Positions 4,628 to 32,000 of a stretch of DNA of 32,000 bases are shown here, piece by piece. The notes under the pieces are model-generated. The model was not told where the DNA came from, ran no database searches, and saw only the letters and a list, made by a program, of their open reading frames with translations. The translations under genes were made by a program, and so were the position numbers. Source of the DNA: Acidothermus cellulolyticus 11B (GTDB lineage: Bacteria > Actinomycetota > Actinomycetes > Acidothermales > Acidothermaceae); contig NC_008578.1 of assembly GCF_000015025.1 (NCBI RefSeq), positions 1,740,001 to 1,772,000 of the forward strand. Direction: 5' to 3'. How positions within the stretch are numbered: position 1 is the stretch's first letter; each line of letters opens with the position of its first letter.

Positions 4628-5527
4628 CTACCCCCCGGTCTGCTCCGCCAATTTCGCCCGCAGCTGCAGCACCGCCTTGGTGTGCATTTGACAGATCCGG
4701 CTCTCGGTGACGCCGAGAACCTGGCCGATTTCCGCAAGCGTCAGCCCTTCGTAGTAATACAACGTGATAACGATTTTCTCGCGCTCAGGAAGAGCGTTGA
4801 TCGCGCGCGACAGAAGGTACTTCGTCTCCTCGGTCTCGAATGCTTCGACGGGATCCTCAGCTTTGGTGTCTTCGAGCGTGTCGACCAGAGAGAGCCGATC
4901 GCCGCGGTCCCCGCCGACGTTGAGCAATTCATCAAGCGCAATCACATTGACGAAGGATACCTGGCTGAAAATGGCGTGCAGTTCATCGAGACTAATGCCG
5001 AGTTCTGCAGCAACCTCCGCCTCGGTAGGCGTCCGGTGCAGCTTGTGTTCGAGTGCGGCGTACGCTTTCTCGACTTCACGGGCCTTATAGCGGACCGAGC
5101 GGGGAATCCAGTCGATGGCCCGCAATTCATCGATAATCGCGCCCTTAATGCGATTGATGGCATACGTCTCGAACTTGATGGCGCGGTCGAGATCGAACTT
5201 TTCGATCGCGTCAATGAGACCGAAGATCCCATAGGAGACCAAGTCGGCCTGCTCGATATTGGGCGGCAGGCCGACACCGACCCGGCCGGCGACGTACTTG
5301 ACCAGGGGCGAGTAATGCAGGATGAGACGCTCACGCAGCTCGGGGTCGCCGGTCTCCTTGAACCGCCGCCACAGGTCACGGAGCGCCGCCTCGGCGTCCT
5401 CGCGGGAGGTCACCTCCTCCGGTGGGGTTTCGCCGAGTCCTGCCGTCACCTCATCCGGTCCTGCCTGCTCGGTGACCGCGTCAATGTTCTGTCCCACGCC
5501 GTCAGGCTCTGGGATGCGCGCGGTCAT
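4628..5527 (-). CDS. whiG: FliA/WhiG-family (sigma-28 type) RNA polymerase sigma factor
   Basis: Region 2 reads [16 protein letters not shown]...[18 protein letters not shown]...[18 protein letters not shown]. The region 4.2 HTH reads [29 protein letters not shown]. The ATG at 5527 overlaps the xerC end by 26 nt. An in-frame GTG at 5497 is an alternative start. Confidence 0.9.
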
Positions 5528-6554
5528 AGGTTGCCCTCAAACGTTCGATCGATACGTGCGTGTACAGCTGCGTTGTAGCGAGCGTAGCGTGACCAAGTAT
5601 CTCTTGAACGCTGCGCAGATCGGCGCCACCCTCAAGGAGGTGTGTCGCGGCGCTATGGCGCAGCCCGTGTGGACCCAGACGCGGGGCGTCCGGAAGATCA
5701 CGAGTCGCGGCGTACACCACGCGTCGTACCTCCCGCGGGTCGATGCGTCGGCCGCGTACACCAAGAAAGATCGCAGATCCGCTGGCGCCGGTCTGGAACG
5801 CTGGGCGGCCATGCCTCAGCCACTGCTCAACCGCGCGCAGGGCTGGTTGGCCGATCGGCACCGTCCGCTCCTTGTTGCCTTTACCGATCACGTGGATGAC
5901 GGCCCGCACCCAGGCGATGTCATCCGTCTCTAAAGCAACGAGCTCACCAACGCGAATTCCCGTCGCGTAGAGCACCTCAAGAATCGCACGATCACGCAAC
6001 CGGCGGGCCAAGGAGATCGTGTCGACATCTTGCGCGGCGTTTGCCGCCCCGGCGTCCTCGCGGGCGTCCTCGGGTACGCCTATCGCCCCGGCATCCGCTT
6101 CGGCATCCGGGCCGGCACGTTGTTCGGCCCGCTCAAGAACCGCGCGAGCCTGGGCCTGCGTGAGAACATCCGGCAGCGGACGCACCACTTTCGGCGTACC
6201 GAGCCGACGCCCCGGATCGTGGGACATCCACCCCTTCTTGCTGCAGTACGCCGTGAAGACGCGCGCGGCGGCGGCACGTCGGGCGATCGTCGTTCGTGCT
6301 CGACCAACGGTGTCAAGCTTCGCAAGATAGCTGCGCAGCACGGCGACCGTGAGGTCCGCTGGCTCACGGCACCCCAACCGCTCGGCATGATCAACAAGGT
6401 CGCGCAGATCGGTCAGGTACGCCCGAACCGTGTGCGACGAAAGGCTGCGCTCGTACTGAAGGTGGCGCGCGAACAGCTCAACGGCGGTGCCGAGACTCGG
6501 CGTCGTCGCCACATCCGTCACACCCGCTGAAGATACTCTTCGAGTGCCTGGCAC
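5502..6554 (-). CDS. xerC: Tyrosine recombinase XerC (chromosome dimer resolution)
   Basis: The C-terminal catalytic region reads [40 protein letters not shown], and [17 protein letters not shown] lies earlier. Synteny with dprA/yifB/yraN matches M. tuberculosis. The start is GTG at 6554..6552. Confidence 0.9.
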
Positions 6555-6756: not shown

Positions 6757-7932
6757 TTAGCCCGCCACCCGCCAGCCGGCATCGGTGCGCTCCACGAGGC
6801 CGTCGGCGGCAAGCCGGCCCAGGGCAGCGAGCACGTCCGGGAGCGCCAACCCGGCTGCGAGCGCGATGCCGGCCGGACCAGCTGACCGCCGTGCCGGCAC
6901 CGCGTCGAGCACCCTGCGGGTCACCCCGTCGAGCCGGTCGCGGGCGCTGCTCGGCGGCGCACCGGGCGTCGGGGCAATGGACGGGTCGAGGCGACCGACA
7001 ATCTCGACGACGTCATCCGCGCGTGTGATGCAGCAGACATCCGGTTCCCGGAGCAGCTGATTGCTGCCAGCCGACAGCGGCGAGGTTACCGGTCCGGGGA
7101 CGGCCATCACGTGCCTTCCTAGGTCGCGCGCCCGGTTCGCCGTATTCAACGCACCGCTGCGTGCCGCGGCCTCAACGACGATCGTGCCGCTCGCTAGTGC
7201 TGCAATTACCCGATTGCGGACGAGAAACCGATGCCGCATTGGTGCGCACCCTGGCGGCCACTCGCTCAGCAAAAGGCCCGTCGACAGGATGCGGTGAAAC
7301 AGCGTCGCGTTGCCGCGTGGATAACAGACGTCAACACCGCACGCAAGCACGGCCACCGTCGCGCCGCCACCCGCCAACGCGCCCCGATGTGCGGCCGCGT
7401 CGATCCCGTAGGCGCCGCCACTTACCACGAGGAAACCCCGCTCGGCGAGCCCGATAGCGAACTCGGCGGCGACGTACTCACCGTAACCGGTGGCGGCTCG
7501 GGAACCGACGACGGCGATCGTGCGATCGGCATCGGCAAGTTTTCCCGCACCGCGCAGCCAGAGCCCGACCGGCGGCACGCTGTATTCGCCAGGCACCCGA
7601 CCGAGATCGTCGAGCTGGGCGGGCCACTCGGAGTCGCCGGGGACAACAAAGCAACCGCCAAGCCGTTCCACGGCGTGCAGATCTGCTTCAGGCCGTGCCG
7701 TCGACAGCCGCGTTCGCCAGTGCCGGGCGTTCGTCACGGGCAACCGATCACGCCGCAGATCACGGACAATCTCCGTCGCGGCATAGCGGGTCAGCAACGC
7801 AGCGAGCTCCCGATCACCTGGTTCCGTCACACGGGACAGCAATGCTCGGGCTAATCGCTCCGTTGCATCAGCCCTGGCCGGCCTGCTGATGGTCGACGCC
7901 GGTTGTTCCTTGCCCGCGTTCCCGGTTGTCAT
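6757..7932 (-). CDS. dprA: DNA-processing protein DprA (Smf)
   Basis: The Rossmann-like core reads VGSRAATGYGEYVAAEFAIGLAERGFLVVSGGAYGIDAAAHRGAL...RHRFLVRNRVIAALASGTIVVEAAARSGALNTA, followed by a C-terminal winged-helix tail. I place the start at ATG 7932..7930, which forms an ATGA overlap with the upstream stop (7929..7931). The ORF-track start at 8400 would overlap the yifB-like gene by 470 nt. Confidence 0.9.
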   Translation of the reverse strand: MTTGNAGKEQPASTISRPARADATERLARALLSRVTEPGDRELAALLTRYAATEIVRDLRRDRLPVTNARHWRTRLSTARPEADLHAVERLGGCFVVPGDSEWPAQLDDLGRVPGEYSVPPVGLWLRGAGKLADADRTIAVVGSRAATGYGEYVAAEFAIGLAERGFLVVSGGAYGIDAAAHRGALAGGGATVAVLACGVDVCYPRGNATLFHRILSTGLLLSEWPPGCAPMRHRFLVRNRVIAALASGTIVVEAAARSGALNTANRARDLGRHVMAVPGPVTSPLSAGSNQLLREPDVCCITRADDVVEIVGRLDPSIAPTPGAPPSSARDRLDGVTRRVLDAVPARRSAGPAGIALAAGLALPDVLAALGRLAADGLVERTDAGWRVAG

Positions 7933-9476
7933 GCCGGAATCCCGGTACGGAGGTACAGCGCCTCGTCCACGTGTTCGCGACCAGGTCGATCGACATCGGC
8001 GAGATCGGCGAGGGTCCATGCGACCCGCAGCACCCGATCCAAACCTCTCGCCGAGAGCAAACCGGTGTCCAAGGCGCGTTCGACCCCGGCAAGCGCCGAG
8101 CGTGAAAGCGGCCACTGTGACCGCAAATACGGCCCAGGAATTTCCGCATTCGTGCGCCACGGCGTGCCGGACCACCGTTCCGCCGCCCGCTGCTGTGCCA
8201 ACGCAACCCTTTTGGCGACGACTGCTCCCGGCTCGGTATGGCGACGATCCGCCAGCAATTCCGCCCGGCTGACGGGGTCCATGCGCACCTGGAGATCGAC
8301 CCGATCGAGCAGCGGGCCGGACAGTCGGCTGAGATATCGACGTCGCATCATCGGTGAACACGTGCACTCCCGATTTCGGCCGGCCGCAGCGCACGGACAC
8401 GGATTCGCGGCCAAGACGAGAAGAAATCGCGCCGGGTAGCTCGTCGTACCACCGGACCGCGCAATCGTGACCCGGCCGGATTCCAACGGTTGGCGCAGGG
8501 CATCGAGAACAGTCGGGCTGAATTCCGGCGCTTCGTCGAGAAATAACACGCCACGATGCGCCAACGACACCTGACCGGGCCGAGCGAGCCCGCTGCCACC
8601 GCCGATCAGCGCAGCGACGGATGTTGAATGGTGCGGGTCCCGAAATGGCGGCCGCTTAATGATGGGGGTCTCCGCGGGAAGCGCACCAGCCACCGAGTAC
8701 ACAGCCGTCACCTCGAGCGCCTCGGCGTGACTCAAGTCGGGCAGCAGACTGGGAAGCCGGGAAGCAAGCATGGTTTTGCCCGTCCCCGGATCGCCGACCA
8801 GAAACAGGTGATGCCCACCCGCTGCCGCGACCTCGATTGCCCGACGGCCGGTCGGTTGACCAAGAACATCCGCGAGATCACCGTGAGGTGCCGTCAGCAC
8901 AGCGGACGCAGGCACGTCGGTGTCCACACTGCCCTCGGCACCGGGGTCATCCGGCGGTGGCCGGCCCTCGCGCAGGGCGGTGAGAAGGTCACCGAGTCGG
9001 GCGGCTGCCCAGATCTCGACGTCGGGCACGAGACGCGCCTCCCGCGCGTTCGCCGCCGGGACCACGACCCGCCCCCTGCCCGCAGCAGACGCGGCAAGTA
9101 CAGCGGGTAGAACGCCGCGCGTAGGCCGCAGGCCACCGTCAAGGCCGAGCTCGCCGAGAAAGACCATTTCGGCGACGGGCGCAGCTGGCACAGCGCCGGC
9201 CGCAGCGAGAATGGCGACCGCCATGGCCACATCAAGACGTGAGCCGTGTTTCGGCAAATCGGCCGGTGACAGACCAAGGGTGATGCGTCGAGACGGCCAG
9301 CTTTCGCCGGAGTTGAGGATGGCGGCCCTGATCCGATCCCGGGCTTCGGAGAGTGCAGCATCCGGGAGCCCCACGAGCGTACAGCCCGGCAGTCCGGGTG
9401 CCAGATCCGCCTCAACCTCAACCAGGTGACCGATGATGCCCGTGAGGGTGATCGACCACGTCCGTGCAAGGCCCAT
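7929..9476 (-). CDS. YifB/ComM-family Mg-chelatase-like AAA+ ATPase
   Basis: It has an N-terminal Lon-protease-like domain, a Walker A motif in LFLVGDPGTGKTMLASRL, Walker B in GVLFLDEAPEF, and a C-terminal Mg-chelatase subunit ChlI-like tail. Its position between yraN and dprA is the conserved one. Confidence 0.9.
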   Translation of the reverse strand: MGLARTWSITLTGIIGHLVEVEADLAPGLPGCTLVGLPDAALSEARDRIRAAILNSGESWPSRRITLGLSPADLPKHGSRLDVAMAVAILAAAGAVPAAPVAEMVFLGELGLDGGLRPTRGVLPAVLAASAAGRGRVVVPAANAREARLVPDVEIWAAARLGDLLTALREGRPPPDDPGAEGSVDTDVPASAVLTAPHGDLADVLGQPTGRRAIEVAAAGGHHLFLVGDPGTGKTMLASRLPSLLPDLSHAEALEVTAVYSVAGALPAETPIIKRPPFRDPHHSTSVAALIGGGSGLARPGQVSLAHRGVLFLDEAPEFSPTVLDALRQPLESGRVTIARSGGTTSYPARFLLVLAANPCPCAAAGRNRECTCSPMMRRRYLSRLSGPLLDRVDLQVRMDPVSRAELLADRRHTEPGAVVAKRVALAQQRAAERWSGTPWRTNAEIPGPYLRSQWPLSRSALAGVERALDTGLLSARGLDRVLRVAWTLADLADVDRPGREHVDEALYLRTGIPA

Positions 9477-9892
9477 CAGAATGCCCCGCGCACATACTCA
9501 ATCGTCGGACCGTCCTCCTTGCGGTGCAGAATCGCGACGACGTCGAACCGAACGGCGGTGTAGCCGTGCGTGCCTTCCGTTGTGTCAACCCTCGTCGCCG
9601 CGTGCTCGGTCAACCAGGCAACGGCAAGCTGGCGCAGCCGCGCCGCCTTGCGCGGAGTGACCGACTCCAGTGGTTCGCCGAATCCAACGCCGCGACGGGT
9701 CTTGACTTCACACACGACAAGGGTGTAGCCGTCGCGTGCGACGATATCGAGTTCGCCGCTGCGGCACCGCCAATTGCGCGCCAGTATCGTCATGCCGAGT
9801 GTCTGAAGATGCTGCGCAGCCAGCTCTTCGCCGAACCTACCAAGCGCTTCCCGCGCCGACGCCGTCCCTGCCATGCCGCTCACCTCCGCCAT
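9476..9892 (-). CDS. YraN-family (UPF0102) predicted endonuclease
   Basis: The sequence GEELAAQHLQTLGMTILARNWRCRSGELDIVARDGYTLVVCEVKTRRG shows the typical YraN D..E.K core. Its stop shares one base with the start of the next gene (TGATG at 9474..9478). Confidence 0.85.
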   Translation of the reverse strand: MAEVSGMAGTASAREALGRFGEELAAQHLQTLGMTILARNWRCRSGELDIVARDGYTLVVCEVKTRRGVGFGEPLESVTPRKAARLRQLAVAWLTEHAATRVDTTEGTHGYTAVRFDVVAILHRKEDGPTIEYVRGAF

Positions 9893-9924
9893 ACGACCGT
9901 GCGGTCAAGCGTGCCAGCAACGGG

Positions 9925-9954
9925 CAGACCGGCGCGGCGGTTGACGCCGGTCTG
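9925..9954. repeat. Perfect 10-bp inverted repeat (hairpin, 10-nt loop)
   Basis: CAGACCGGCG at 9925..9934 pairs with CGCCGGTCTG at 9945..9954. It lies 33 nt upstream of the yraN start and about 320 nt downstream of the methyltransferase stop. No U-tract is present on either strand. Confidence 0.7.
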
Positions 9955-9971
9955 TGGACGCCGGTGGGCGG

Positions 9972-10014
9972 GGCTGGGGACATTCCTCGAAGTGGCCAGG
10001 CTGGGGGCATTCCT
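9972..10014. repeat. Direct repeat: 16-nt core, 27-nt period, 2 copies
   Basis: Copy 1 (9972..9987) is ggctggggacattcct. Copy 2 (9999..10014) is ggctgggggcattcct. Confidence 0.8.
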
Positions 10015-10108
10015 GCGAGCGGTGCTACCGGACGGCGTTCGACCTGGCCGCTGGTTGGCGGCGTATGCGGGTCGGGCACACTCCTCCGAGCGGAGACACC
10101 GCAAGCGA

Positions 10109-10162
10109 CGCACCTTCAGGTTGAGCCACACCCGCAGGGTGAGACGCACCCTCGGGTTGAGA
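10109..10162. repeat. Imperfect tandem repeat: 18-nt unit, 3 copies
   Basis: The units are cgcaccttcaggttgagc (10109..10126), cacacccgcagggtgaga (10127..10144) and cgcaccctcgggttgaga (10145..10162). Confidence 0.8.
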
Positions 10163-10275
10163 TGACAAAGCCGTGTCGGCAGCGGATTCGGGTCAGCCGA
10201 TGCCACGCCGGAAAGCCGCCGTGTTCTGACGACGGCTCTCCGGGTTGCATCGAGGAAGAGGCGTCAAACCGCGGT

Positions 10276-11328
10276 CTAGGGTTTCGCCTCAAACACAAGA
10301 TTGAACGGGGTCCGGGCGGCCTCCCGGAATTCCGAAAAGCCGGCGTCGACAACTACCTGACGAATAGCCTGCGGCCCCGCTTGCGCGCCAAGCGCATATC
10401 GACCCCCTTGTGCCTTTGCGTTCGGCACACAGAGGAATGTTGAGAAGTTGTAATACACTCGGCCGACGGGATTGAGATTCTCCGCGATACCGTCACCCGC
10501 AAGCGGCTCTACGATCAACCATGTTCCGTCCGGTGTCAGGACGTCGCGAATATGGCGTGCTGCTGCGAATGGATCGCCCATGTCGTGCAAGCAATCGAAC
10601 GTCGCCACCAGATCGTATCCCGATCCCGGGAAGGACTGCGCCGTGTTGACGTCGAACGTCGTGCGGTCGGCGACGCCGGCGTCGGCCGCACGCTTGCGCG
10701 CCAAGGCGATCGAACCATCGTGGTAGTCGAATCCGGCGAACCGCGACCGCGGAAAAGCCTTCGCCATCAGGATGGTTGACGCACCAAGGCCGCATCCCAC
10801 GTCGGCAACCGTGCCGCCGTCCTGCAGTTTCGCCTCGACGCCGTCCAGCGCCGGAATCCAGCTCGTCACCAAGTTGCCTGCGTAATTCGGGCGGAAGAAC
10901 TGCTCGCAGCCGACGAAGACATCGGCGTCATGTTCATGCCACCCGACACCAGCGCCGGTGAGGAACGCTTCGCGGATACGGGAAATGGCACGCAATGCTC
11001 CAAGCGCGAGAACGAACGCACCGGGGAAATACAAGGCGCCGTCGGGATTCGTGAGAGCGAATGCTTGTTCTTCGTTGAGCGAATACTGCTCGGTTTGGGG
11101 ATCCACGTCGACGTAGCCGCCCGCTGCCTGTCCGCGCAGCCATTCGGTGAGATACCGAACGTCGGTCCGCGTGCGCTGGGCAAGCTCCGCCGGCGTGGCT
11201 GGACCGGATGCAAGGGCCTGATAGAGGCCCAACTCGTGACCGAGGACGACGTTGCCCGCCGCCATCGTCGCCCCAAGGTCTCCTGCGAAGCGACCCACGA
11301 ATTCCATGAGTTTGTCGTGATTGACCAT
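10276..11328 (-). CDS. Class I SAM-dependent methyltransferase with N-terminal winged-helix domain (Rv2258c-like architecture)
   Basis: SAM-binding motif I reads VADVGCGLGASTILMA, the post-I acidic residue lies in FAGFDYH, and later motifs read YDLVATFDCLHDMGDP and DGTWLIVEP. The N-terminal ~100 aa resemble the wHTH dimerisation domain of this family. GGGAG lies just upstream of ATG 11328. Confidence 0.85.
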   Translation of the reverse strand: MVNHDKLMEFVGRFAGDLGATMAAGNVVLGHELGLYQALASGPATPAELAQRTRTDVRYLTEWLRGQAAGGYVDVDPQTEQYSLNEEQAFALTNPDGALYFPGAFVLALGALRAISRIREAFLTGAGVGWHEHDADVFVGCEQFFRPNYAGNLVTSWIPALDGVEAKLQDGGTVADVGCGLGASTILMAKAFPRSRFAGFDYHDGSIALARKRAADAGVADRTTFDVNTAQSFPGSGYDLVATFDCLHDMGDPFAAARHIRDVLTPDGTWLIVEPLAGDGIAENLNPVGRVYYNFSTFLCVPNAKAQGGRYALGAQAGPQAIRQVVVDAGFSEFREAARTPFNLVFEAKP

Positions 11329-11609
11329 GAGCTCCCGCCCCCCTTTCGCATGCGGCTCACGTCCCTTCTGGACGAAGCCTCGAGAACCTCAAGCGCCCGG
11401 TCGGACGTTCCGCGGGCCACTATCGCGCGTCTGTATGGCGTGATGGTCACAACCCCCGACCGACCACTCGACACGGTCAGCCTCGACCACACGCTTTGCA
11501 GAATTCTTGCAGCCGGCTTGCACATGACGGACGGACGCGCCGCAACGCGTTCCCGTGCGCCCTGGCGTTTCGATACGGAGCGGACCAGCCCGCCCCCAAC
11601 GTGCGATCG

Positions 11610-12479
11610 TCAGTCAACACCGGCCGACGGAAACGCTGACACAACTGACTGCGTCTCGCTGCCGATCGCATCCCGCATCTGACCAACGTCCTCCCGGAGC
11701 AGGGCGGTGTACAGCATCCGCGTACGGACCGACGGTTCGACGCCAAGCTCTTCGGTCAGCCGATCCCGCAACCGCAGGTAGACGGATATTGCGCGCGGAA
11801 TTTCGCCAAGCGCCCAGCATACGAGAATCAACAGGCGATGGAGAGATTCATTCCAGGGCTCGGCGGCCGTCAAATATTCCAATGCCCCTACCGCTCGGCC
11901 GGGCTGTTCTGATCGCAGCGCGGCGACGCTGAGAATCCGCCCAGCCTGCTGCCAGAGCAGACGTCGCTGCTCCTCAAGGCCGGTGATCCACGGCGCTGGA
12001 GGTTCATCCTCCAACGCCCGGCCCACGCCCGCGAGCTGGAACGCCTGCGCCGCACGGATCGTTGCGAGGCGCACATCTCCGGCGTACACCAGTCGCTCCG
12101 CGTCGTCCGTAAGGTACGCAACATCGTCGAAATCAAGGTGGACAAGGGGCGCCTCGGCCAACCGGTAACCGCCCGCGAATCGCTCAATGTAAGGCGCGCC
12201 CAGTAAGGCCCGGAGCCGGCTCACCAGAGTAGCGACGCTGCCCGCGGTGTCACGCGGCATCTCCTCGCCCCAGAGCAGCTCGGCAATACGATCCGCCGAG
12301 AGAATACGACCGCGTTCGGCGGCCAGCAGTTTGAGCAAGGTGCGCGCCTTCCGCCCGGCGAGCTGCGAGAGGTCCATGACCTGGCCGCCAACGCGGGCCG
12401 TGAACGGACCTATCAGCGTCAACGACAACGGCGGCGGTTGGGCGCTGACCGTCGCCGACGGCGTACTGTGCCGATACAC
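11610..12479 (-). CDS. SARP/AfsR-family transcriptional regulator (OmpR-type winged helix plus BTAD)
   Basis: The sequence LTLIGPFTARVGGQVMDL..RKARTLLKLLAAERGRILSADRIAELLWGEE....ATLVSRLRALLG...GYRL is the SARP DNA-binding domain. The C-terminal helical part, ending in YLRLRDRLTEELGVEPSVRTRMLYTALL, is a BTAD signature. The start is ambiguous: GTG 12479, or TTG 12428 / 12422. Confidence 0.8.
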   Translation of the reverse strand: MYRHSTPSATVSAQPPPLSLTLIGPFTARVGGQVMDLSQLAGRKARTLLKLLAAERGRILSADRIAELLWGEEMPRDTAGSVATLVSRLRALLGAPYIERFAGGYRLAEAPLVHLDFDDVAYLTDDAERLVYAGDVRLATIRAAQAFQLAGVGRALEDEPPAPWITGLEEQRRLLWQQAGRILSVAALRSEQPGRAVGALEYLTAAEPWNESLHRLLILVCWALGEIPRAISVYLRLRDRLTEELGVEPSVRTRMLYTALLREDVGQMRDAIGSETQSVVSAFPSAGVD

Positions 12480-12520
12480 CGCTCTCCCCCCTGATCCGAG
12501 GCGGCTGTCTGAAAGACGGT

Positions 12521-26191: not shown

Positions 26192-27433
26192 TTACGGGGA
26201 GGTAAACGCCTCCGGGACACCGAGCAAGGCGTCCACGAAGGCCGCCGGATCGAACGGCGCAAGGTCGTCCGGGCCTTCGCCGAGACCGACAAGCTTGACC
26301 GGGATGCCTAACTCACGCTGCACGGAAATGACGATGCCGCCCTTGGCGGTGCCGTCCAGTTTTGTCAGCACAACACCGGTGACGGCGACGACGTCGGTGA
26401 AGACACGCGCTTGCGTGAGACCGTTCTGGCCGGTGGTGGCGTCGAGAACGAGGAGAACTTCACTGACCGGACACCGCCGTTCCACGACGCGCTTGACCTT
26501 GCCGAGCTCATCCATGAGACCCGTCTTGGTGTGCAGCCGCCCGGCGGTGTCAATGACGACGACGTCCGCCTCCTGCTCGATCGCCACCCGGACGGCGTCG
26601 AAAGCGACCGATGCCGGGTCGGCCCGTTCCGCACCCCGCACGACGGGGACCCCTACCCGCCGTCCCCAGGTCTCGAGTTGATCCGCGGCGGCGGCCCGGA
26701 AGGTGTCGGCAGCCCCGAGAACGACGCTCCGTCCGTCGGCGACGAGGAGCCGCGCGAGCTTGCCGACGGTCGTCGTCTTCCCGGTTCCGTTGACCCCGAC
26801 GACCAAAACGACGGCGGGTCCTGCGGCGGTCCGCGTCGTCGCCAAGGATCGGTCCAGCCCGGCGTCGACGGTATCAAGCAGGCTGCGACGCAGCATGGCG
26901 CGGACGTCGTCCGGTGACCGGACACCCATGACCTTCGCCTCAGTGCGCAACCGCTCGACAAGTTCGGTGGTCGCGGCGACGCCGACATCGGCGGTGAGCA
27001 GCAGGTCTTCGATCTCCTGCCACGTTGCGTCGTCCAGCCGTTCCCGGCTCAGCAAGGCGAAAAGGCCGCGACCGAGCACGGATTCGGAGCGCGCCAGGCG
27101 GGATCGAAGCCGAATCATCCGGCCGGCTGCGACGGCGGGGACGTCCCGCTCGTCGCCCGCCGCGGCAGCGGATTCCGCCACTGCAGCTGCGGATTCCGCC
27201 TCCGGCGCCGCGGCCGGCGCCACGGCCGGCTCGGCCTGCTGGGCCTGCTGGACGGCCGGCGCGGCCTCCTGGGCGACCGGCTCAGCCTGCCGGGTGGCAG
27301 GCGTGGCCGGCGTGGCCGGCGGTGCGCCGGCGCCGGCGCCCCGCGGGCGACGCCCGGCGCGTACGCCGAGGTAAACCGCCCCAGCCGCGAGGAGGACGAC
27401 AATCCCGATCAACGCTGCAATGAGCCACACCAC
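26192..27433 (-). CDS. ftsY: Signal recognition particle receptor FtsY
   Basis: An N-terminal TM segment (VWLIAALIGIVVLLAAGAVYL) is followed by an Ala/Pro/Glu-rich linker. The NG domain shows VVGVNGTGKTTTVGKLA, DTAGRL and TKLDGTAKGG. Confidence 0.95.
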   Translation of the reverse strand: MVWLIAALIGIVVLLAAGAVYLGVRAGRRPRGAGAGAPPATPATPATRQAEPVAQEAAPAVQQAQQAEPAVAPAAAPEAESAAAVAESAAAAGDERDVPAVAAGRMIRLRSRLARSESVLGRGLFALLSRERLDDATWQEIEDLLLTADVGVAATTELVERLRTEAKVMGVRSPDDVRAMLRRSLLDTVDAGLDRSLATTRTAAGPAVVLVVGVNGTGKTTTVGKLARLLVADGRSVVLGAADTFRAAAADQLETWGRRVGVPVVRGAERADPASVAFDAVRVAIEQEADVVVIDTAGRLHTKTGLMDELGKVKRVVERRCPVSEVLLVLDATTGQNGLTQARVFTDVVAVTGVVLTKLDGTAKGGIVISVQRELGIPVKLVGLGEGPDDLAPFDPAAFVDALLGVPEAFTSP

Positions 27434-27507
27434 GGACGAAGTCTCCCATGCCGGACTGTCGGTGCCGTGCCATTGTCCGCCCGGCTATGCCATCCGGCAG
27501 GGCGCGC

Positions 27508-27621
27508 GTTGGGCACCGTGCCGCCCGGTTGAGCCCTTGCGGCAGCTCGCATTCCCTGCCGCCCGGTTGCGGCTGTCCAGCACCTCGCATTCCCTGCCGC
27601 CCGGTTGTCCACAAGCGGCGG
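27508..27621. repeat. Three tandem units of 38 nt sharing the core TGCCGCCCGGTTG; units 2 and 3 share 24 identical nt
   Basis: ctcgcattccctgccgcccggttg occurs at 27546..27569 and at 27584..27607. The 13-nt core also occurs at 27519..27531, so the cores are spaced 38 and 38 nt apart. The array lies in the divergent spacer between ftsY and the toxin-like ORF. Confidence 0.85.
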
Positions 27622-27667
27622 TTGCGTGAACTGCAGCACAACCGTTCTGCCACTACCGTTCCGCGAC

Positions 27668-29098
27668 ATGACCGACAATCCGCCGCCCATTTCCGGCGAC
27701 CCGCACGCCATCGCCGAAACCGCCCGTCGCCTCATCGCGGCCGCGACCGGCGTGTCCGACGTCGGGCAACGCCTGCATTTCCTTGCTGCGACAGACAATT
27801 TCTGGTGGGGTACCGCGGCGGAGCGTGCGCACGATCGGACGCTTCACCTCGCCGCACCGCTGACCGTCGTTGCGGAGGCGTATCGCGCCGGCGGGAAGGT
27901 GCTGCGGCGCTACGCCATCCAATTGGACGACCTCCAGCACGAAGCCGAACGCGCCCAGCGTCGGGTCAGCCAGGCGGAAAGCGACGTGGCGGCGGCCCGC
28001 CACGCGCTCACGAGTGCCCTCGCGCACGATGCCGCAACCCGATCCGTCGCATGGGGACTGGGGGTTCCACCGCCGCCGGCCACCGCGCCGCGGTACAGCG
28101 CAGCCGTGACGGACGCCGAACACCAGCTCGCCGCCGCGAAAGAGCAGTTCACGTCCTGTCAAGAGAAATTTGCAGAATTGGCGCGGTCCACCGCACGCCG
28201 ATTGGACAACCTCCAACCGCCGGCACGCGACCACCGTCCGTGGTGGCACACCGTCACTCACCCGATGGCCCACTGGATTTCCCATCACTGGGCACACTTT
28301 CTCCGGCAGACCGCGCGGCTTGCCCAGAGCATCGGCACGGTCGCCGGTGTTGTCGCCCTGCTTCTCGCGGCGGTGGCCATCGCCTTTCCACCGCTGGAAA
28401 TCGCAGCCGGCGCCACGGAAGCCCTTGCCGCCGTCAGTAACACAACAGCGGGCGTCGCCCGGGCCGCTGTCGAGCTCTCCGAACCCACCGGCCGAACGGC
28501 GGGACTGGTGGACCTGGCGACCGTCAGTCTTCCCGGCCCGGCGCGGCGCATCGTCGCGAAAACCGGCGTCGGCCGGCTGGAAGCACCGACGCATCTCGCC
28601 ATCAGGCGGCCGCCACCGCCGTCGCGGGACATCCCCCTCGGGTTCCGCAATCGAGACGAATTCGCCGCATTTGGCGAGAGATTACAACGCGGATTAGCTG
28701 AGGCCGGGTATCCTAACGCGGTGGCAATCATGCAAGGGAGTTCGGTGACCGGCGTCAGCTTCCGGACGAAGGAGCCGTTCGACGTCGGACGCCGCAGCGA
28801 TTTCGATATCGCGTTGTGCGACGAGTCGCTGTTCCGCGCAGCAAAACATCACGGTGTTGATCTGCGCGCCTATGAGCGGACCGCTCCATTGAAAGCCCGA
28901 AAGAAAGAGAGCGTCGAGATCGCCCGACAGCTTGGCCTTGACGGACTCCAGCGCGAGCTCAGCGCCCGGGCCCGCCGCGACGTGGACTTCATGATTTTCC
29001 GGTATACCGGGACGGCGCTCATTCGGGCGCAGAGTATTCCTTTTCCGCCGTGGCGGGACCGGGTGCTCGGCCCGTCGCAACCGACACGATTCCAGTGA
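27668..29098 (+). CDS. Putative polymorphic-toxin-like protein: WXG100/T7SS-type N-terminal helical domain, one TM-like segment, and a C-terminal nucleotidyltransferase-fold-like domain
   Basis: Third-codon positions are G/C-biased in this frame. The N-terminus reads GDPHAIAETARRL....FWWGTAAERAHDR...AYRAGGKVLRRYAIQLDDLQHEAERAQRR, with the WxG at 27803..27811. A hydrophobic segment IGTVAGVVALLLAAVAIAFP spans 28331..28390. The C-terminus has QGSS (from 28736), SDFDIAL (28799..28807) and DVDFMIF. I prefer the ATG 27668 start to TTG 27605 or GTG 27626. Confidence 0.68.
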   Translation: MTDNPPPISGDPHAIAETARRLIAAATGVSDVGQRLHFLAATDNFWWGTAAERAHDRTLHLAAPLTVVAEAYRAGGKVLRRYAIQLDDLQHEAERAQRRVSQAESDVAAARHALTSALAHDAATRSVAWGLGVPPPPATAPRYSAAVTDAEHQLAAAKEQFTSCQEKFAELARSTARRLDNLQPPARDHRPWWHTVTHPMAHWISHHWAHFLRQTARLAQSIGTVAGVVALLLAAVAIAFPPLEIAAGATEALAAVSNTTAGVARAAVELSEPTGRTAGLVDLATVSLPGPARRIVAKTGVGRLEAPTHLAIRRPPPPSRDIPLGFRNRDEFAAFGERLQRGLAEAGYPNAVAIMQGSSVTGVSFRTKEPFDVGRRSDFDIALCDESLFRAAKHHGVDLRAYERTAPLKARKKESVEIARQLGLDGLQRELSARARRDVDFMIFRYTGTALIRAQSIPFPPWRDRVLGPSQPTRFQ

Positions 29099-29107
29099 GG
29101 ACGACGC

Positions 29108-29548
29108 ATGACCACACGGACTTCGCGCCGGACGCATCTCGCCGACGTGTACGGCGCATTCGGCGACGCATCGGGAGCATGGGATCTCGCCCTGGTCGGC
29201 ATGGGACGGGTGCTGCAGATCCTGGAGACCCAACTTGGCCTCAGCTTCGAGGCGCATGACAGCTCGTACTGCAACGGCCTGTACTTTGCGCAGTGCGGAC
29301 CGGACGAATCGTTCTCCGTGACGGTCTACAACAATGCGCCCTTCGACGACCTCGAGGAGATCGTGCATCTCCAATTCGCCGACTTTCCGGTCGTTATCAA
29401 CGTGTCCGGAGATCCCGCGGCGGTCGAACGGATTCGCCACCATTTCCGCGAACTCGGATACACGCTGCTGACACGCACGACCGTCGTAGAGTCCGATGAC
29501 CCGCCGCAGGACGCCTCCGACGACGACCGCTCTCGGACGCCGCAGTGA
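29108..29548 (+). CDS. Small acidic protein (146 aa), candidate cognate immunity protein
   Basis: The ATG at 29108 lies 9 nt after the upstream stop, and GAGGA (29097..29101) overlaps that stop. Codon bias is good. The C-terminus is acidic (ESDDPPQDASDDD). No family was recognised. The LETQLGLSF....NGLYF stretch is only loosely SUKH/SMI1-like. Confidence 0.6.
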   Translation: MTTRTSRRTHLADVYGAFGDASGAWDLALVGMGRVLQILETQLGLSFEAHDSSYCNGLYFAQCGPDESFSVTVYNNAPFDDLEEIVHLQFADFPVVINVSGDPAAVERIRHHFRELGYTLLTRTTVVESDDPPQDASDDDRSRTPQ

Positions 29549-29565
29549 GGCGGAGCGACGGACGC

Positions 29566-32000
29566 CTACGCCGGCTGCGGTTCGAGGTCCCGGTCCCGCA
29601 ACCGCTGACTGATGACCGTTGAGACACCGTCGCCGCGCATCGAAATACCGTACAACGCGTCGGCGATTTCCATCGTCGGTTGCTGGTGCGTGACGATGAT
29701 GAGTTGACTGCTCTCCCGCAACTCTTCGAAAATGTCCAACATCCGACGAAGATTCGTCTCGTCGAGGGCGGCTTCCACCTCATCGACGACGTAGAACGGG
29801 CTGGGCCGTGCCTTGAAGAGCGCGACCAGGAATGCGAGTGCGGTCAGTGACCGTTCGCCGCCGGAGAGCAGCGACAGACGCTTCACTTTCTTCCCCGCCG
29901 GCCGGGCTTCAATGTCGATACCGGTGGCGAGCAGGTCATTCGGCTCGGTGAGCACCAGGCGTCCCTCACCGCCGGGGAACAATCGTGCAAACACCTGCTC
30001 GAATTCCCGCGCGGTGTCCGCAAACGCCGACGCAAAGACCTCCTGCACCCGCTCATCCACCTCACGGACGATTTCCAGCAAATCACGCCTGCTCTTCTTC
30101 AGGTCTTCGAGCTGCTCGCTGAGAAAACGGTGGCGTTCCTCGAGCGCTGCGAATTCCTCCAAGGCCAGCGGATTCACCTTGCCGAGCGCAGCGAGGGCGC
30201 GTTCGGCCGACCGGGCCCGCTTTTCTTGTTCGGCCCGCACGTACGGGACAGTCTCGACGGCGTCCGTCTCACCGTCGGTTGCATCGGTCTCGGCCGCGAC
30301 CGGCACCGGAACATGCGGACCATATTCCGCGACCAGCGTGTCCGCGTCGACGCCGAATTCCTCCATTGCCCGCCCGGTGACCTGCTCCATCCGCAGCCGC
30401 AGTTCGGCGCGGGCCACCTCGTCACGGTGCACGGCATCCGTCAACTTCTCGAGTTCGTCACCGACTGCACGCAACTCGTCCCGGACCCGGGCAAGCTCCG
30501 CCTCCCGGGCGGCACGGTCATCATCCGCGACGCGCCGCTCGGCGTCCGCCTCGGTCAACGACCGCTCCAGCCGGCGCAGAATCACCCGCGAAGCCTGGGC
30601 CACCGCGGCTGCGACGACCGCCTCACGTCGCCGCACTTCCCGCTGCCGGGCCGCCCGAATCCGAGCCGCCCGTTCCGCCTGTGCTGCAGCGGACAGCTCC
30701 TCAGCCCGCTGCAACGCCGCCCGATAGCGTTCGTTCGCCGTGCCAACGGCAAGCCGTGCCTCAGTTTCTTCGGCGCGTGCGTCCGCGACAAGCTCTGCCA
30801 GCCGATCCCGCTCCTCCGCCGAGGGTTCTTCGGGGACGTCGTCCGCCTCTTGGGCGGCCGCAAGGGCGCGCTCCAATTCGGCAAGCCGCTCCCGATCCCG
30901 CTCGTTGGCCTCCCGGGCCTGCGCAATGGAACCGGCAAGCCGATCCGCTTCGGCCATTGCGGCCCGCGCCTGCGCTCCGAGGTGGCCAAGCTGCTCGGCA
31001 ATAGCGGCCATGGCGGCGTCCGACTCGTGGAGTTGGGCAAGCGCGGCGTCCGCCGCAGCCGCGGCCTGTTCACGGGCCTGTTCCGCCGCGGCTATCTCGA
31101 ACCGAAGCTGGTGCTGGCGTGCGACCACCTCGTCCAGCTGGCGGCGTGCATCGTCCAGGGCGGCCTGGACCTCCAAGAGGGACGGCGCTGTCGCTGACCC
31201 ACCGGCAGCCTCGGCGGCGGCCAGCAGGTCACCGTCCCGCGTGACGACGCGAAGGCCGGGGTGCCGGGTCACGAGCGCGTGCGCAGTCTGCAGGTCGTCG
31301 ACGACGACAACGTTGCGGAGCAGAACGTCCAGCGTGCCGCGGAATTCGGGTGCGGCATCGACGAGATCCCGTAACCAGCGGCCATCCGGCGGTGCTGTAC
31401 CGGCATGCCCGGATTCGGGCAATCCTCCGATCAATAGGGAGGTACGACCCGCGTCCTCTTCCTTGAGCCGCCGCATGCCGGCGAGTGCTGCGTCGACCGA
31501 GGTGACAGCGACGCCGTTGGCGACATCCCCAAGGACGGCGGCCAACGCGGCCTCGTAGCCGGCCTCGATCCGCAGCGTGCGGGCGACGGCACCCACCGTC
31601 CCCGGTACGGCGGCATCAAGCAGCGCCGCGGCACCGTCCTTGCGAGTCGCACTCAGCGCAAGCGCATCCACCCGAGCCGCGAGCGAGGCGCGCGCCCGCT
31701 CAAGCTCCCGTTCGCGCTCTCGAAGCGCCGCCAGCCGTTCCTCCGCCGCGGTCAGCGCCTCCGCCGCCCGTTCGTAGTCGGCATCCAGTCCGACTTCCCC
31801 TTCGTCGAGACCGGCGATCTGGCTTTCCAGTGCCTGAAATTCCTGCTGCGCCCGGTCCGCACGGGCCCGCGCCTCAGCAGCGGCGGCGGCAAGCCGGCCG
31901 ATCTCCTCCTCACCGGCCGCGACCCGAGTCCGCTGCGCAGCGACCTGGCCGGCCAGCCGGGCCAGCGTCTCCCGCCGATCCGCAGCCGCCCGCAGCGCGA
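29566..32000 (-). CDS. smc: Chromosome segregation protein SMC, C-terminal ~810 codons (continues beyond the right edge)
   Basis: The C-terminal ABC head shows the signature LSGGERSLTALAFLVALFKARPSPFYVVDEVEAALD. A long Ala/Glu/Arg/Leu coiled coil and a hinge (GTVGAVARTLRIEAGYEAALAAVLG) lie upstream. I checked by hand that the frame stays open from 31671 to at least 31860. The GTG at 31671 in the ORF track is internal. Confidence 0.95.
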   Translation of the reverse strand, partial: ALRAAADRRETLARLAGQVAAQRTRVAAGEEEIGRLAAAAAEARARADRAQQEFQALESQIAGLDEGEVGLDADYERAAEALTAAEERLAALRERERELERARASLAARVDALALSATRKDGAAALLDAAVPGTVGAVARTLRIEAGYEAALAAVLGDVANGVAVTSVDAALAGMRRLKEEDAGRTSLLIGGLPESGHAGTAPPDGRWLRDLVDAAPEFRGTLDVLLRNVVVVDDLQTAHALVTRHPGLRVVTRDGDLLAAAEAAGGSATAPSLLEVQAALDDARRQLDEVVARQHQLRFEIAAAEQAREQAAAAADAALAQLHESDAAMAAIAEQLGHLGAQARAAMAEADRLAGSIAQAREANERDRERLAELERALAAAQEADDVPEEPSAEERDRLAELVADARAEETEARLAVGTANERYRAALQRAEELSAAAQAERAARIRAARQREVRRREAVVAAAVAQASRVILRRLERSLTEADAERRVADDDRAAREAELARVRDELRAVGDELEKLTDAVHRDEVARAELRLRMEQVTGRAMEEFGVDADTLVAEYGPHVPVPVAAETDATDGETDAVETVPYVRAEQEKRARSAERALAALGKVNPLALEEFAALEERHRFLSEQLEDLKKSRRDLLEIVREVDERVQEVFASAFADTAREFEQVFARLFPGGEGRLVLTEPNDLLATGIDIEARPAGKKVKRLSLLSGGERSLTALAFLVALFKARPSPFYVVDEVEAALDETNLRRMLDIFEELRESSQLIIVTHQQPTMEIADALYGISMRGDGVSTVISQRLRDRDLEPQPA

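Follow-up and report, generated by a model that had tools for sequence, protein, structure and literature searches.

The 32,000-nt stretch of the Acidothermus cellulolyticus 11B chromosome analysed here (the window, whose positions serve as coordinates throughout) carries two plus-strand open reading frames (ORFs) between ftsY and smc, both of which are transcribed from the minus strand. The two genes very probably encode a polymorphic toxin together with its immunity protein, in a module of the WXG or type VII secretion (T7SS, ESX) class. The original prediction had proposed a toxin and immunity pair, a proposal now supported by a T7SS_signal domain at the N-terminus of the larger protein, by a C-terminal domain that is shuffled among carriers and by a small acidic protein family that is always encoded downstream of that domain. 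From the sequences, we infer that the C-terminal domain is toxic and that the smaller protein (ORF B) neutralises it. The elements on which the argument relies are the following.

26192-27433, minus strand: ftsY (SRP54 domains, E 1e-73)
27668-29098, plus strand: toxin gene, 476 amino acids (aa), isoelectric point (pI) 10.0 (ORF map; start backed by orthologue alignment)
27689-28168, plus strand: N-terminal WXG / T7SS_signal domain, putatively helical, aa 8-167 (Pfam PF21725)
27803-27811, plus strand: WxG motif W46-W47-G48, inside the N-terminal domain
28310-28417, plus strand: central segment, hydrophobic and rich in Ala/Gly, about aa 215-250 (Kyte-Doolittle means of up to 2.6 over 19-residue windows)
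28634-29047, plus strand: C-terminal toxin domain, aa 323-460, common to Rhs, CdiA/FHA (filamentous haemagglutinin), PT-HINT, PT-TG and WXG100 proteins
28733-28741 and 28796-28807, plus strand: QGS and SDFD motifs, respectively, in the C-terminal toxin domain
29108-29548, plus strand: immunity gene (ORF B), 146 aa, pI 4.5 (family hidden Markov model, HMM, E 2e-9)
29566 to beyond 31671, minus strand: smc (SMC_N and SMC_hinge domains)

Relatives of the full-length toxin were rare, as a word-indexed search of 5.8 billion proteins returned only six of them. These comprised a 97% identical copy (P0001), a full-length protein 40% identical (P0002), two Kineosporiaceae proteins annotated as WXG100 family with the C-terminus in common, and two Rhs proteins that shared only the last ~140 residues, at 47-49% identity. 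A profile built from the C-terminal domain, which is basic (pI 10.2), yielded 265 protein matches in Actinomycetota and Pseudomonadota, many of them named filamentous haemagglutinin (CdiA-type), RHS or PT-HINT, and with Stutzerimonas, Providencia, Burkholderia, Pseudomonas, Rhizobium and Streptomyces among the named hosts. The Pfam domains detected in 107 family members (PT-HINT, PT-TG, RHS, TEN_YD-shell, WXG100 and T7SS_signal) all lay outside the common domain, and in the Rhs protein P0006 the C-terminal domain begins directly after the end of the Rhs core (DPLGL). In every full-length homologue, the toxin domain is joined to an export or delivery scaffold, be it T7SS_signal, WXG100, Rhs, CdiA/FHA or PT-HINT. 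As read from these comparisons, the domain recombines onto unrelated scaffolds, which is the defining behaviour of the C-terminal domain of a polymorphic toxin. Neither Pfam nor NCBIfam holds a model of this domain, and PADLOC gave no match for the full-length toxin. Sequence searches of the PDB with the C-terminal domain alone, with its profile and with ORF B retrieved chance matches only (Top7 designs and a response regulator), and no description of the C-terminal domain was found in the literature on PF21725 and on nucleotidyltransferase-type polymorphic toxins.

It should be noted that the toxin domain and immunity gene also occur as orphan cassettes, in Providencia (L088/L089, 1-10000) and on the Pseudomonas aeruginosa plasmid NZ_CP116719 (L090, 3900-8800), in whose record the toxin-domain ORF itself is unannotated. 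The neighbouring pairs in these orphan arrays are RNase/barstar, glutamine deamidase/YrhB and endonuclease/hypothetical, and the Providencia cassettes are interspersed with five small SymE_toxin genes of opposite orientation.

Regarding the smaller protein, a search with ORF B alone gave a single match, 96% identical. However, a gene of the same family was located directly downstream of the toxin domain, at a spacing of 0-100 nt, in all nine independent contexts that were read as DNA, namely the window and the eight listed here.

L001, ENA metagenome contig (ERZ25039495 contig_63434, 2.1 Mb): downstream gene of 116 aa
L002, 8.8-Mb genome, Rhs context: downstream gene of 118 aa
L003/L004, Kineosporiaceae metagenome-assembled genomes (MAGs): downstream gene of 111 aa and a 115-aa paralogue
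L008, Acidothermaceae MAG: downstream gene of 235 aa, two tandem domains
L085/L086, Streptomyces: downstream gene of 105 aa
L087, Pseudomonas asplenii: downstream gene of 105 aa
L088/L089, Providencia: downstream gene of 106 aa
L090, P. aeruginosa plasmid: downstream gene of 106 aa

A leave-one-out HMM from which the window sequence had been excluded recovered ORF B with an E value of 2e-9, and none of the 11,858 ORFs searched was matched falsely. A score of E 2e-27 was obtained for the P. aeruginosa locus, which had no part in the construction of the HMM. In addition, a phmmer search with ORF B against 1.84 billion representative proteins recovered the protein encoded downstream of the L001 toxin (P0132) together with some two-domain versions. 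This strict synteny across phyla and carriers constitutes strong evidence that the small genes are the cognate immunity family of the toxin domain. No known immunity family was identified for ORF B in Pfam, NCBIfam or PADLOC. Its AlphaFold model (pLDDT 79) is an alpha+beta sandwich, for which Foldseek gave no significant PDB match, only generic alpha+beta or ferredoxin-like ones. The protein is acidic and the larger one basic (pI 4.5 and 10.0), in line with the acidic character initially ascribed to the small protein.

Duplicated forms of the immunity protein were also observed. The 235-aa protein of L008 (4515-5222, minus strand) consists of two tandem immunity domains, two-domain versions are present in the database (P0133 and P0136), and in the Kineosporiaceae loci a second, diverged paralogue directly follows the first immunity gene (L003 3861-4208 and L004 4319-4666, plus strand). 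Two proteins with long, multi-stretch matches to ORF B (P0131 and P0135) were considered as polyimmunity proteins and discarded, being eukaryote-type repeat proteins (FAZ1).

The N-terminal part of the toxin provides the link to type VII secretion. Its start is likely the ATG at 27668, which gives the 476-aa protein and from which both orthologues (L001 and L008) align; less plausible starts are the mechanically assigned TTG at 27605 and the GTG with which the database protein P0001 (97% identical) is annotated. The match to Pfam PF21725 ("putative T7SS secretion signal domain") has an E value of 3.1e-7 and scores 31 bits against a gathering score of 27. Within this domain, W46 and G48 are invariant in the three orthologues (window, L001 and L008), WEG is present in P0003, and the homologue P0004 has WXG100_2. 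When the YxxxD/E export motif of the C-terminal helix was looked for, a conserved tyrosine was found (Y82, in RRYAIQLDD), but the acidic residue is off the canonical +4 spacing. The "secretion-type N-terminus" of the original prediction is thus a WXG-type T7SS domain and not a signal peptide. The central segment, whose FPPLE and adjoining residues the orthologues have in common, is possibly membrane-spanning, judging from its hydrophobicity. In the two Kineosporiaceae MAGs, a WXG100 gene and a 98-aa gene precede a WXG100-type homologue with the same C-terminal domain, which is followed on its 3' side by the immunity gene, the immunity paralogue and a gene for an FtsK_SpoIIIE (EccC-like) ATPase. 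Export of the A. cellulolyticus toxin by a T7SS is, on these sequence grounds, probable.

To what extent the position of the pair is conserved was determined from 80 actinomycete loci around ftsY homologues, 69 of which contain both smc and ftsY. The distances between the two genes, which are extrapolated, were distributed as follows.

up to 300 bp: 18 of the 69 loci
300-1500 bp: 17 of the 69 loci
1.5-3 kb: 13 of the 69 loci
more than 3 kb: 21 of the 69 loci

The median distance is 1.46 kb and 34 of the 69 loci exceed 1.5 kb. The junction is therefore occupied in most of the actinomycetes surveyed, and variable; the adjacency of smc and ftsY from which the original prediction had started is found in only about a quarter of the loci. 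When the junction was compared across these genomes, the same toxin and immunity pair, divergent from ftsY, was present in L001 and in the Acidothermaceae MAG L008 (contig DASVDW010000120), and neither of the two toxin domains, N- or C-terminal, nor the immunity gene was present in any other surveyed locus. L001 and L008 are the genomes with the closest SMC (75-79% identical) and FtsY (68-75%), whereas their toxin is just 36-40% identical. Since the same pair occupies the same junction in both with a toxin so divergent, these comparisons indicate that it is an old, fast-evolving and vertically kept resident of the junction in one lineage, and not a recent acquisition. In view of the orthologous pairs, a recent horizontal island is not supported and was rejected.

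Judged by flanking genes, the nearest named relative is the Acidothermaceae MAG. In L001, a 201-aa gene without Pfam match (5210-5815, minus strand) separates ftsY from the toxin gene, and further genes (NUDIX, AMP-binding enzyme, MDMPI_N, luciferase-like enzyme and glyoxalase) are found at 7851-12509; because of these extra genes around the pair, the junction is variable even within the lineage. A metagenome scan for further orthologous loci, with the 320 N-terminal toxin residues as query, returned only one 3-kb contig, 100% identical. On this contig (L091, Ga0070737_10034810 of a public JGI metagenome, 3035 bp) lies the coding sequence for toxin residues 1-320, and its complete identity over them suggests that the same or a nearly identical organism was present in that metagenome.

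The DNA upstream of the toxin gene contains three elements.

27434-27667, no strand: divergent intergenic and promoter region, flanked by ftsY (minus) and the toxin gene (plus) (ORF map, sequence)
27516-27629, plus strand: 38-nt tandem repeat, 2.3-3 copies (repeat search; TRF score 129)
27605-27613, plus strand: DnaA-box-like 9-mer TTGTCCACA, 55 nt upstream of the toxin ATG (pattern search)
27654-27659, plus strand: TACCGT, a -10-like TANNNT hexamer, 8 nt before the ATG (sequence)

The 9-mer TTGTCCACA is identical to the DnaA box that has high affinity in Mycobacterium and Streptomyces (PMC4285127, Table 1) and is the only TTRTCCACA match in the window, where 0.11 would be expected; only 8 such matches occur in the ~1.5 Mb of loci analysed. 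Amid otherwise diverged DNA, it lies 53-55 nt upstream of the toxin ATG in the window, in L001 (5940-5948, plus strand) and in L008 (6644-6652, minus strand, there TTATCCACA). One match is also found in the toxin-less relative L005 (9917-9925, plus strand), 40 nt upstream of ftsY, so that the putative DnaA box may belong to the regulation of ftsY rather than to that of the toxin; from its position, it may serve ftsY, the toxin or both. Each of the three orthologous loci has the TANNNT hexamer 6-8 nt before the ATG, as TACCGT in the window, TAACTT in L001 (hexamer to ATG, ~5985-6003) and TACCTT in L008 (~6604-6587, minus strand). This geometry, typical of leaderless actinobacterial mRNA, suggests that the toxin mRNA is leaderless. 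TTGTCC was examined as a sigma-70 -35 element and rejected, as it lies 43 nt from the -10-like hexamer. As for the tandem repeat, its 21-mer GCATTCCCTGCCGCCCGGTTG occurs exactly twice, at 27549 and 27587 (0 expected), and its last copy runs into the DnaA-box-like site. The repeat was not seen upstream of the L001 and L008 toxin orthologues.

At the other end of the pair, two further elements are of interest.

29097-29101, plus strand: GAGGA Shine-Dalgarno sequence of the immunity gene, overlapping the toxin stop codon (from sequence)
29549-29565, no strand: 17-nt gap between the convergent immunity-gene and smc stops (sequence)

The coordinates of the original prediction proved exact here. The toxin gene ends with TGA at 29096-29098 and is separated from the ATG at 29108 by a 9-nt spacer, GGACGACGC; ORF B ends with TGA at 29546-29548, 17 nt from the convergent TAG of smc (minus strand, 29566-29568). 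The overlap of GAGGA with the toxin stop codon is consistent with translational coupling of the immunity gene to the toxin gene. The predicted lack of a terminator was likewise upheld, as a terminator scan found no terminator-like hairpin within or around the 17-nt gap and folding of the convergent-end region was no better than that of shuffled sequence (z-scores 0.04 and -0.68). Since no terminator was found, transcripts of the island could plausibly read through antisense into smc.

The G+C content of the toxin C-terminal domain and of the immunity gene is lower than that of the window as a whole. An earlier hand count of 57 G+C in 28801-28900 was exact, and the values amount to 62.6% for the toxin C-terminal domain and 63.0% for the immunity gene, compared to 67.5% for the window and 70.8% for ftsY. 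Other low-G+C stretches exist in the window, such as amt (64%) and the 3' end of smc (~62%), and the dip is real but modest. In the profile over 28350-28949, G+C drops from 0.72 to 0.59 inside 300 nt, at ~28650, near where the C-terminal toxin domain starts, and then stays at ~0.62 across the immunity gene into the 3' end of smc. GC3 differs only moderately, with 70% on the C-terminal side compared to 77% in the toxin's N-terminal part. The step at ~28650 probably reflects composition and not a recent cassette swap; cassette replacement is not indicated because the orthologues have the same C-terminal family.

The rest of the window is a housekeeping block that encodes an M23 peptidase, a P-type ATPase, a sigma factor, a XerC-like recombinase, DprA, a ComM/ChlI-type ATPase, RNase HII, LepB, TrmD, Ffh, GlnD and Amt, in addition to FtsY and SMC. 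The 5' part of ftsY (27160-27340, minus strand) contains several short tandem repeats with periods of 6, 9, 12 and 21 nt, which encode an Ala/Pro-rich low-complexity region at the N-terminus of FtsY (PATPATPAT, AAPAV and similar). The length of this region varies among relatives, as many FtsY alignments start only near residue 95.

To address what the toxin domain may do, its structure was modelled from 107 sequences with AlphaFold2 (pLDDT 92.6, pTM 0.87). In the numbering of the C-terminal domain, which is used for all residues below, the model starts with a helix (14-30) and a strand (37-41), continues with a short helix at the conserved Q41-G42-S43-x-V-T-G, a loop F56-D57-V-G59-R60 and a strand (64-69) with S62-D63-x-D65, and ends with more helices and a strand at 124-129. 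The polar residues conserved in the 107 sequences are Q41, S43, T46, D57, R60, S62, D63, D65, R85, R89, T90 and R122. Nucleotidyltransferases of the DNA-polymerase-beta type are characterised by a GS turn followed by a strand with SDxD, which in the minimal enzymes reads FGSxxxG…SDxDxxh. An hG[GS] element is found here at the end of strand 37-41, where S43 is invariant across the 107 sequences and conservation of Q41 and G42 is 90% or higher, and a [DE]h[DE]h element is provided by S62-D63-F-D65-I-A on strand 64-69, with D63 invariant and D65 at least 90% conserved. In hhalign, S62-D63-F-D65 aligns with SDLDLA of the minimal nucleotidyltransferase (MNT) protein HI0073, and the GS…SDxD arrangements of the two were lined up with P ~0.006-0.01. 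The reference used consisted of just three sequences, HI0073 (confirmed in the PDB), part of the 5yep MNT and the N-terminal portion of a kanamycin nucleotidyltransferase, and the ORFs of the loci contained no MNT homologue that could be added to it. NTP_transf_2 (PF01909) is the sole enzyme family that recurs among the weak Pfam matches. The top Foldseek matches in the PDB were TUT7, CCA-adding enzymes, TUT4, Cid1 and the CD-NTase CdnB, at non-significant E values of 0.4-4 and TM-scores of ~0.3, and the annotated matches in BFVD were viral nucleotidyltransferases (E 0.075 and up). A minimal nucleotidyltransferase of the polymerase-beta type is the best fit, on account of the Q-G-S, the S-D-x-D strand, D57, the four arginines and the predicted alpha/beta fold. 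That the toxin domain has this activity is a tentative assignment, to which we give somewhat less than an even chance, the motifs and the model being consistent with it if only weakly so. Two other assignments were tried and rejected: a RelA/SpoT alarmone synthetase, as no RelA_SpoT Pfam match appeared at any threshold and the motifs differ, and a Toprim domain or nuclease, as no Glu is conserved after the first strand and no such fold was among the matches.

Taken together, these observations lead us to propose that the toxin would be translated from a leaderless mRNA starting at the ATG at 27668 and directed to a type VII secretion system by the helical WXG / T7SS_signal domain at its N-terminus, its hydrophobic middle segment possibly serving membrane insertion or translocation. 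The C-terminal domain of ~140 aa would be the toxic part and would nucleotidylate, or otherwise modify with a nucleoside triphosphate (NTP), a cytosolic protein or RNA target in the recipient cell. In the producer, the acidic 146-aa immunity protein, coupled 9 nt downstream, would bind and block the toxin domain.

Several points weigh against this account. No T7SS gene and no WXG100 partner are present in the 32-kb window, and the toxin gene lacks the small neighbouring genes for helical partners that usually go with T7SS toxins. The hydrophobic middle segment could keep the protein in the membrane of the producer, and weapon cassettes more typically show frequent turnover than lasting residence at a single chromosomal site. 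With respect to the chemistry, the third catalytic carboxylate is not conserved, as the candidate strand 124-129 reads V-[N/D]-F-M-I, mostly with Asn; the conserved D57 might replace it. The Foldseek TM-scores of 0.3-0.44 and the best E values of 0.4 (PDB) and 0.075 (best annotated BFVD match) are non-significant, NTP_transf_2 was detected in just 3 of the 107 members (best E 0.039), and the hhalign probability against the nucleotidyltransferase reference was only 4-6%.

That every nucleotidyltransferase match falls below significance and that the third catalytic carboxylate is not conserved would also suit a polymorphic toxin whose domain is another metal-dependent enzyme, for example a nuclease or a phosphodiesterase acting on DNA or RNA, with the conserved aspartates and arginines at work in it. 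Nucleases make up the majority of the polymorphic toxin domains characterised (Zhang et al. 2012, PMC3482391), and the four conserved arginines suit nucleic-acid binding as well as NTP binding. However, the Foldseek matches include no nuclease fold, no Pfam nuclease family was matched even at E up to 10, and the GS...SDxD arrangement is a nucleotidyltransferase signature; we regard this alternative as unlikely, while giving it real weight. A different explanation would dispense with export. The absence of T7SS genes nearby, the tight coupling of the two genes and the lead fold, a minimal nucleotidyltransferase such as is present in toxin-antitoxin systems (5yep MNT), could be reconciled with a cytoplasmic toxin-antitoxin-like module of the MenT/AbiEii or HEPN-MNT type that acts on the producer itself in stress or phage defence. 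Such a module is highly improbable, considering that the toxin domain is carried on export or delivery scaffolds in every full-length homologue, that the protective gene lies downstream, as immunity genes do, and that PADLOC, Pfam and NCBIfam gave no match to a toxin-antitoxin or defence family.

The persistence of the pair invites yet another explanation, namely domestication, in which the larger protein would be a membrane-anchored or secreted physiological enzyme, possibly tied to ftsY/smc or to replication via the DnaA box, and the smaller one its regulator. Compatible with this are the presence of the pair at one junction in three genomes that diverge as much as separate genera do, the conserved DnaA-box-like element and promoter geometry, and the hydrophobic middle segment. 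By contrast, identity amounts to 36-40% for the toxin and to 68-79% for its neighbours, a rapid divergence such as conflict genes are expected to show; the same domain pair is found in classical orphan cassette arrays of Proteobacteria; and the duplicated immunity domain of L008 and the second paralogue of L003/L004 are typical of arms races. Domestication is thus quite improbable, if slightly less so than a cytoplasmic module. A toxin and immunity module of the T7SS class remains our preferred reading. In its most complete form, it would represent a new family of interbacterial toxins with a minimal-nucleotidyltransferase fold that kill by nucleotidylating a protein or RNA target, paired with a new immunity fold, delivered by type V, VI and VII systems across phyla and, in this actinomycete lineage, present as a chromosomally fixed T7SS version with a DnaA-controlled leaderless promoter. 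That all these parts hold together is rather doubtful.

TelA-C and EsaD are characterised Firmicutes examples of the T7SS-linked WXG/LXG polymorphic toxins. Toxins of this type with downstream immunity genes were predicted in 2012 (Zhang et al., PMC3482391). Validation has followed several times in Firmicutes and, for the LXG alarmone synthetase AaEAS, in Amycolatopsis (PMC12691689), and further toxin domains continue to be discovered, many at a time (PMC13483458). The A. cellulolyticus toxin resembles the WXG/LXG toxins of the T7SS in that its C-terminal domain is exchanged with Rhs and CdiA carriers. It differs from them by its N-terminal domain, which is of the actinobacterial PF21725 type and not LXG, by its hydrophobic middle segment, by the lack of adjacent targeting-factor or WXG100 partner genes, by C-terminal domain and immunity families without Pfam or NCBIfam model, and by a locus that is fixed in a housekeeping block and not beside a T7SS cluster. 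With Rhs and CdiA cassettes, it shares the identical C-terminal domain family (44-54% identity) and the immunity family, which also occur as orphans in Providencia and Pseudomonas. Unlike these cassettes, it has a T7SS-type carrier in a Gram-positive-type actinomycete, with no Rhs/YD or FHA repeats and no orphan array.

In HEPN-MNT systems, the nucleotidyltransferase is the antitoxin and not the toxin, and MenT belongs to a different family (DUF1814). Like the minimal nucleotidyltransferases (NTP_transf_2, HI0073 / MNT), the toxin domain comprises ~140 aa and follows the order helix, strand, GS turn, SDxD strand, helix. It departs from them by a 9-residue insert (PFDVGRR) between GS and DxD, by the third carboxylate, which is not conserved, and by the absence of a significant sequence or structure match. 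A comparison can also be made with the secreted RelA/SpoT-type toxins Tas1 and EAS (PMC12691689), which have in common with it the nucleotidyltransferase superfamily (here only a candidate), delivery by type VI (T6SS) or type VII secretion and pairing with an immunity protein; the A. cellulolyticus domain is set apart by the lack of any RelA_SpoT match and by its other conserved motifs. What appears to be new is the particular pair of toxin and immunity domains, for which no model, structure or description was found, together with its fixed position in a housekeeping block and, possibly, a nucleotidyltransferase chemistry.

Polymorphic toxins shape competition in microbial communities, and new toxic domains have tended to reveal new modes of killing. 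The uncatalogued pair described here is found repeatedly, in actinomycetes from soil, in Streptomyces, in Pseudomonas (one case being a clinical P. aeruginosa plasmid), in Providencia and in Burkholderia, and the confident model, with the conserved residues S43, D57, D63, D65, R60, R85, R89 and R122, makes the nucleotidyltransferase hypothesis directly testable. To our knowledge, few antibacterial T7SS toxins of Actinomycetota have been studied experimentally, so that a compact 476-aa toxin with its immunity gene would be a convenient model. Finally, should the conserved DnaA box be functional, a toxin gene would be regulated in an unusual way, and control by DnaA, if true, would tie production of the toxin to the replication or growth state of the cell.

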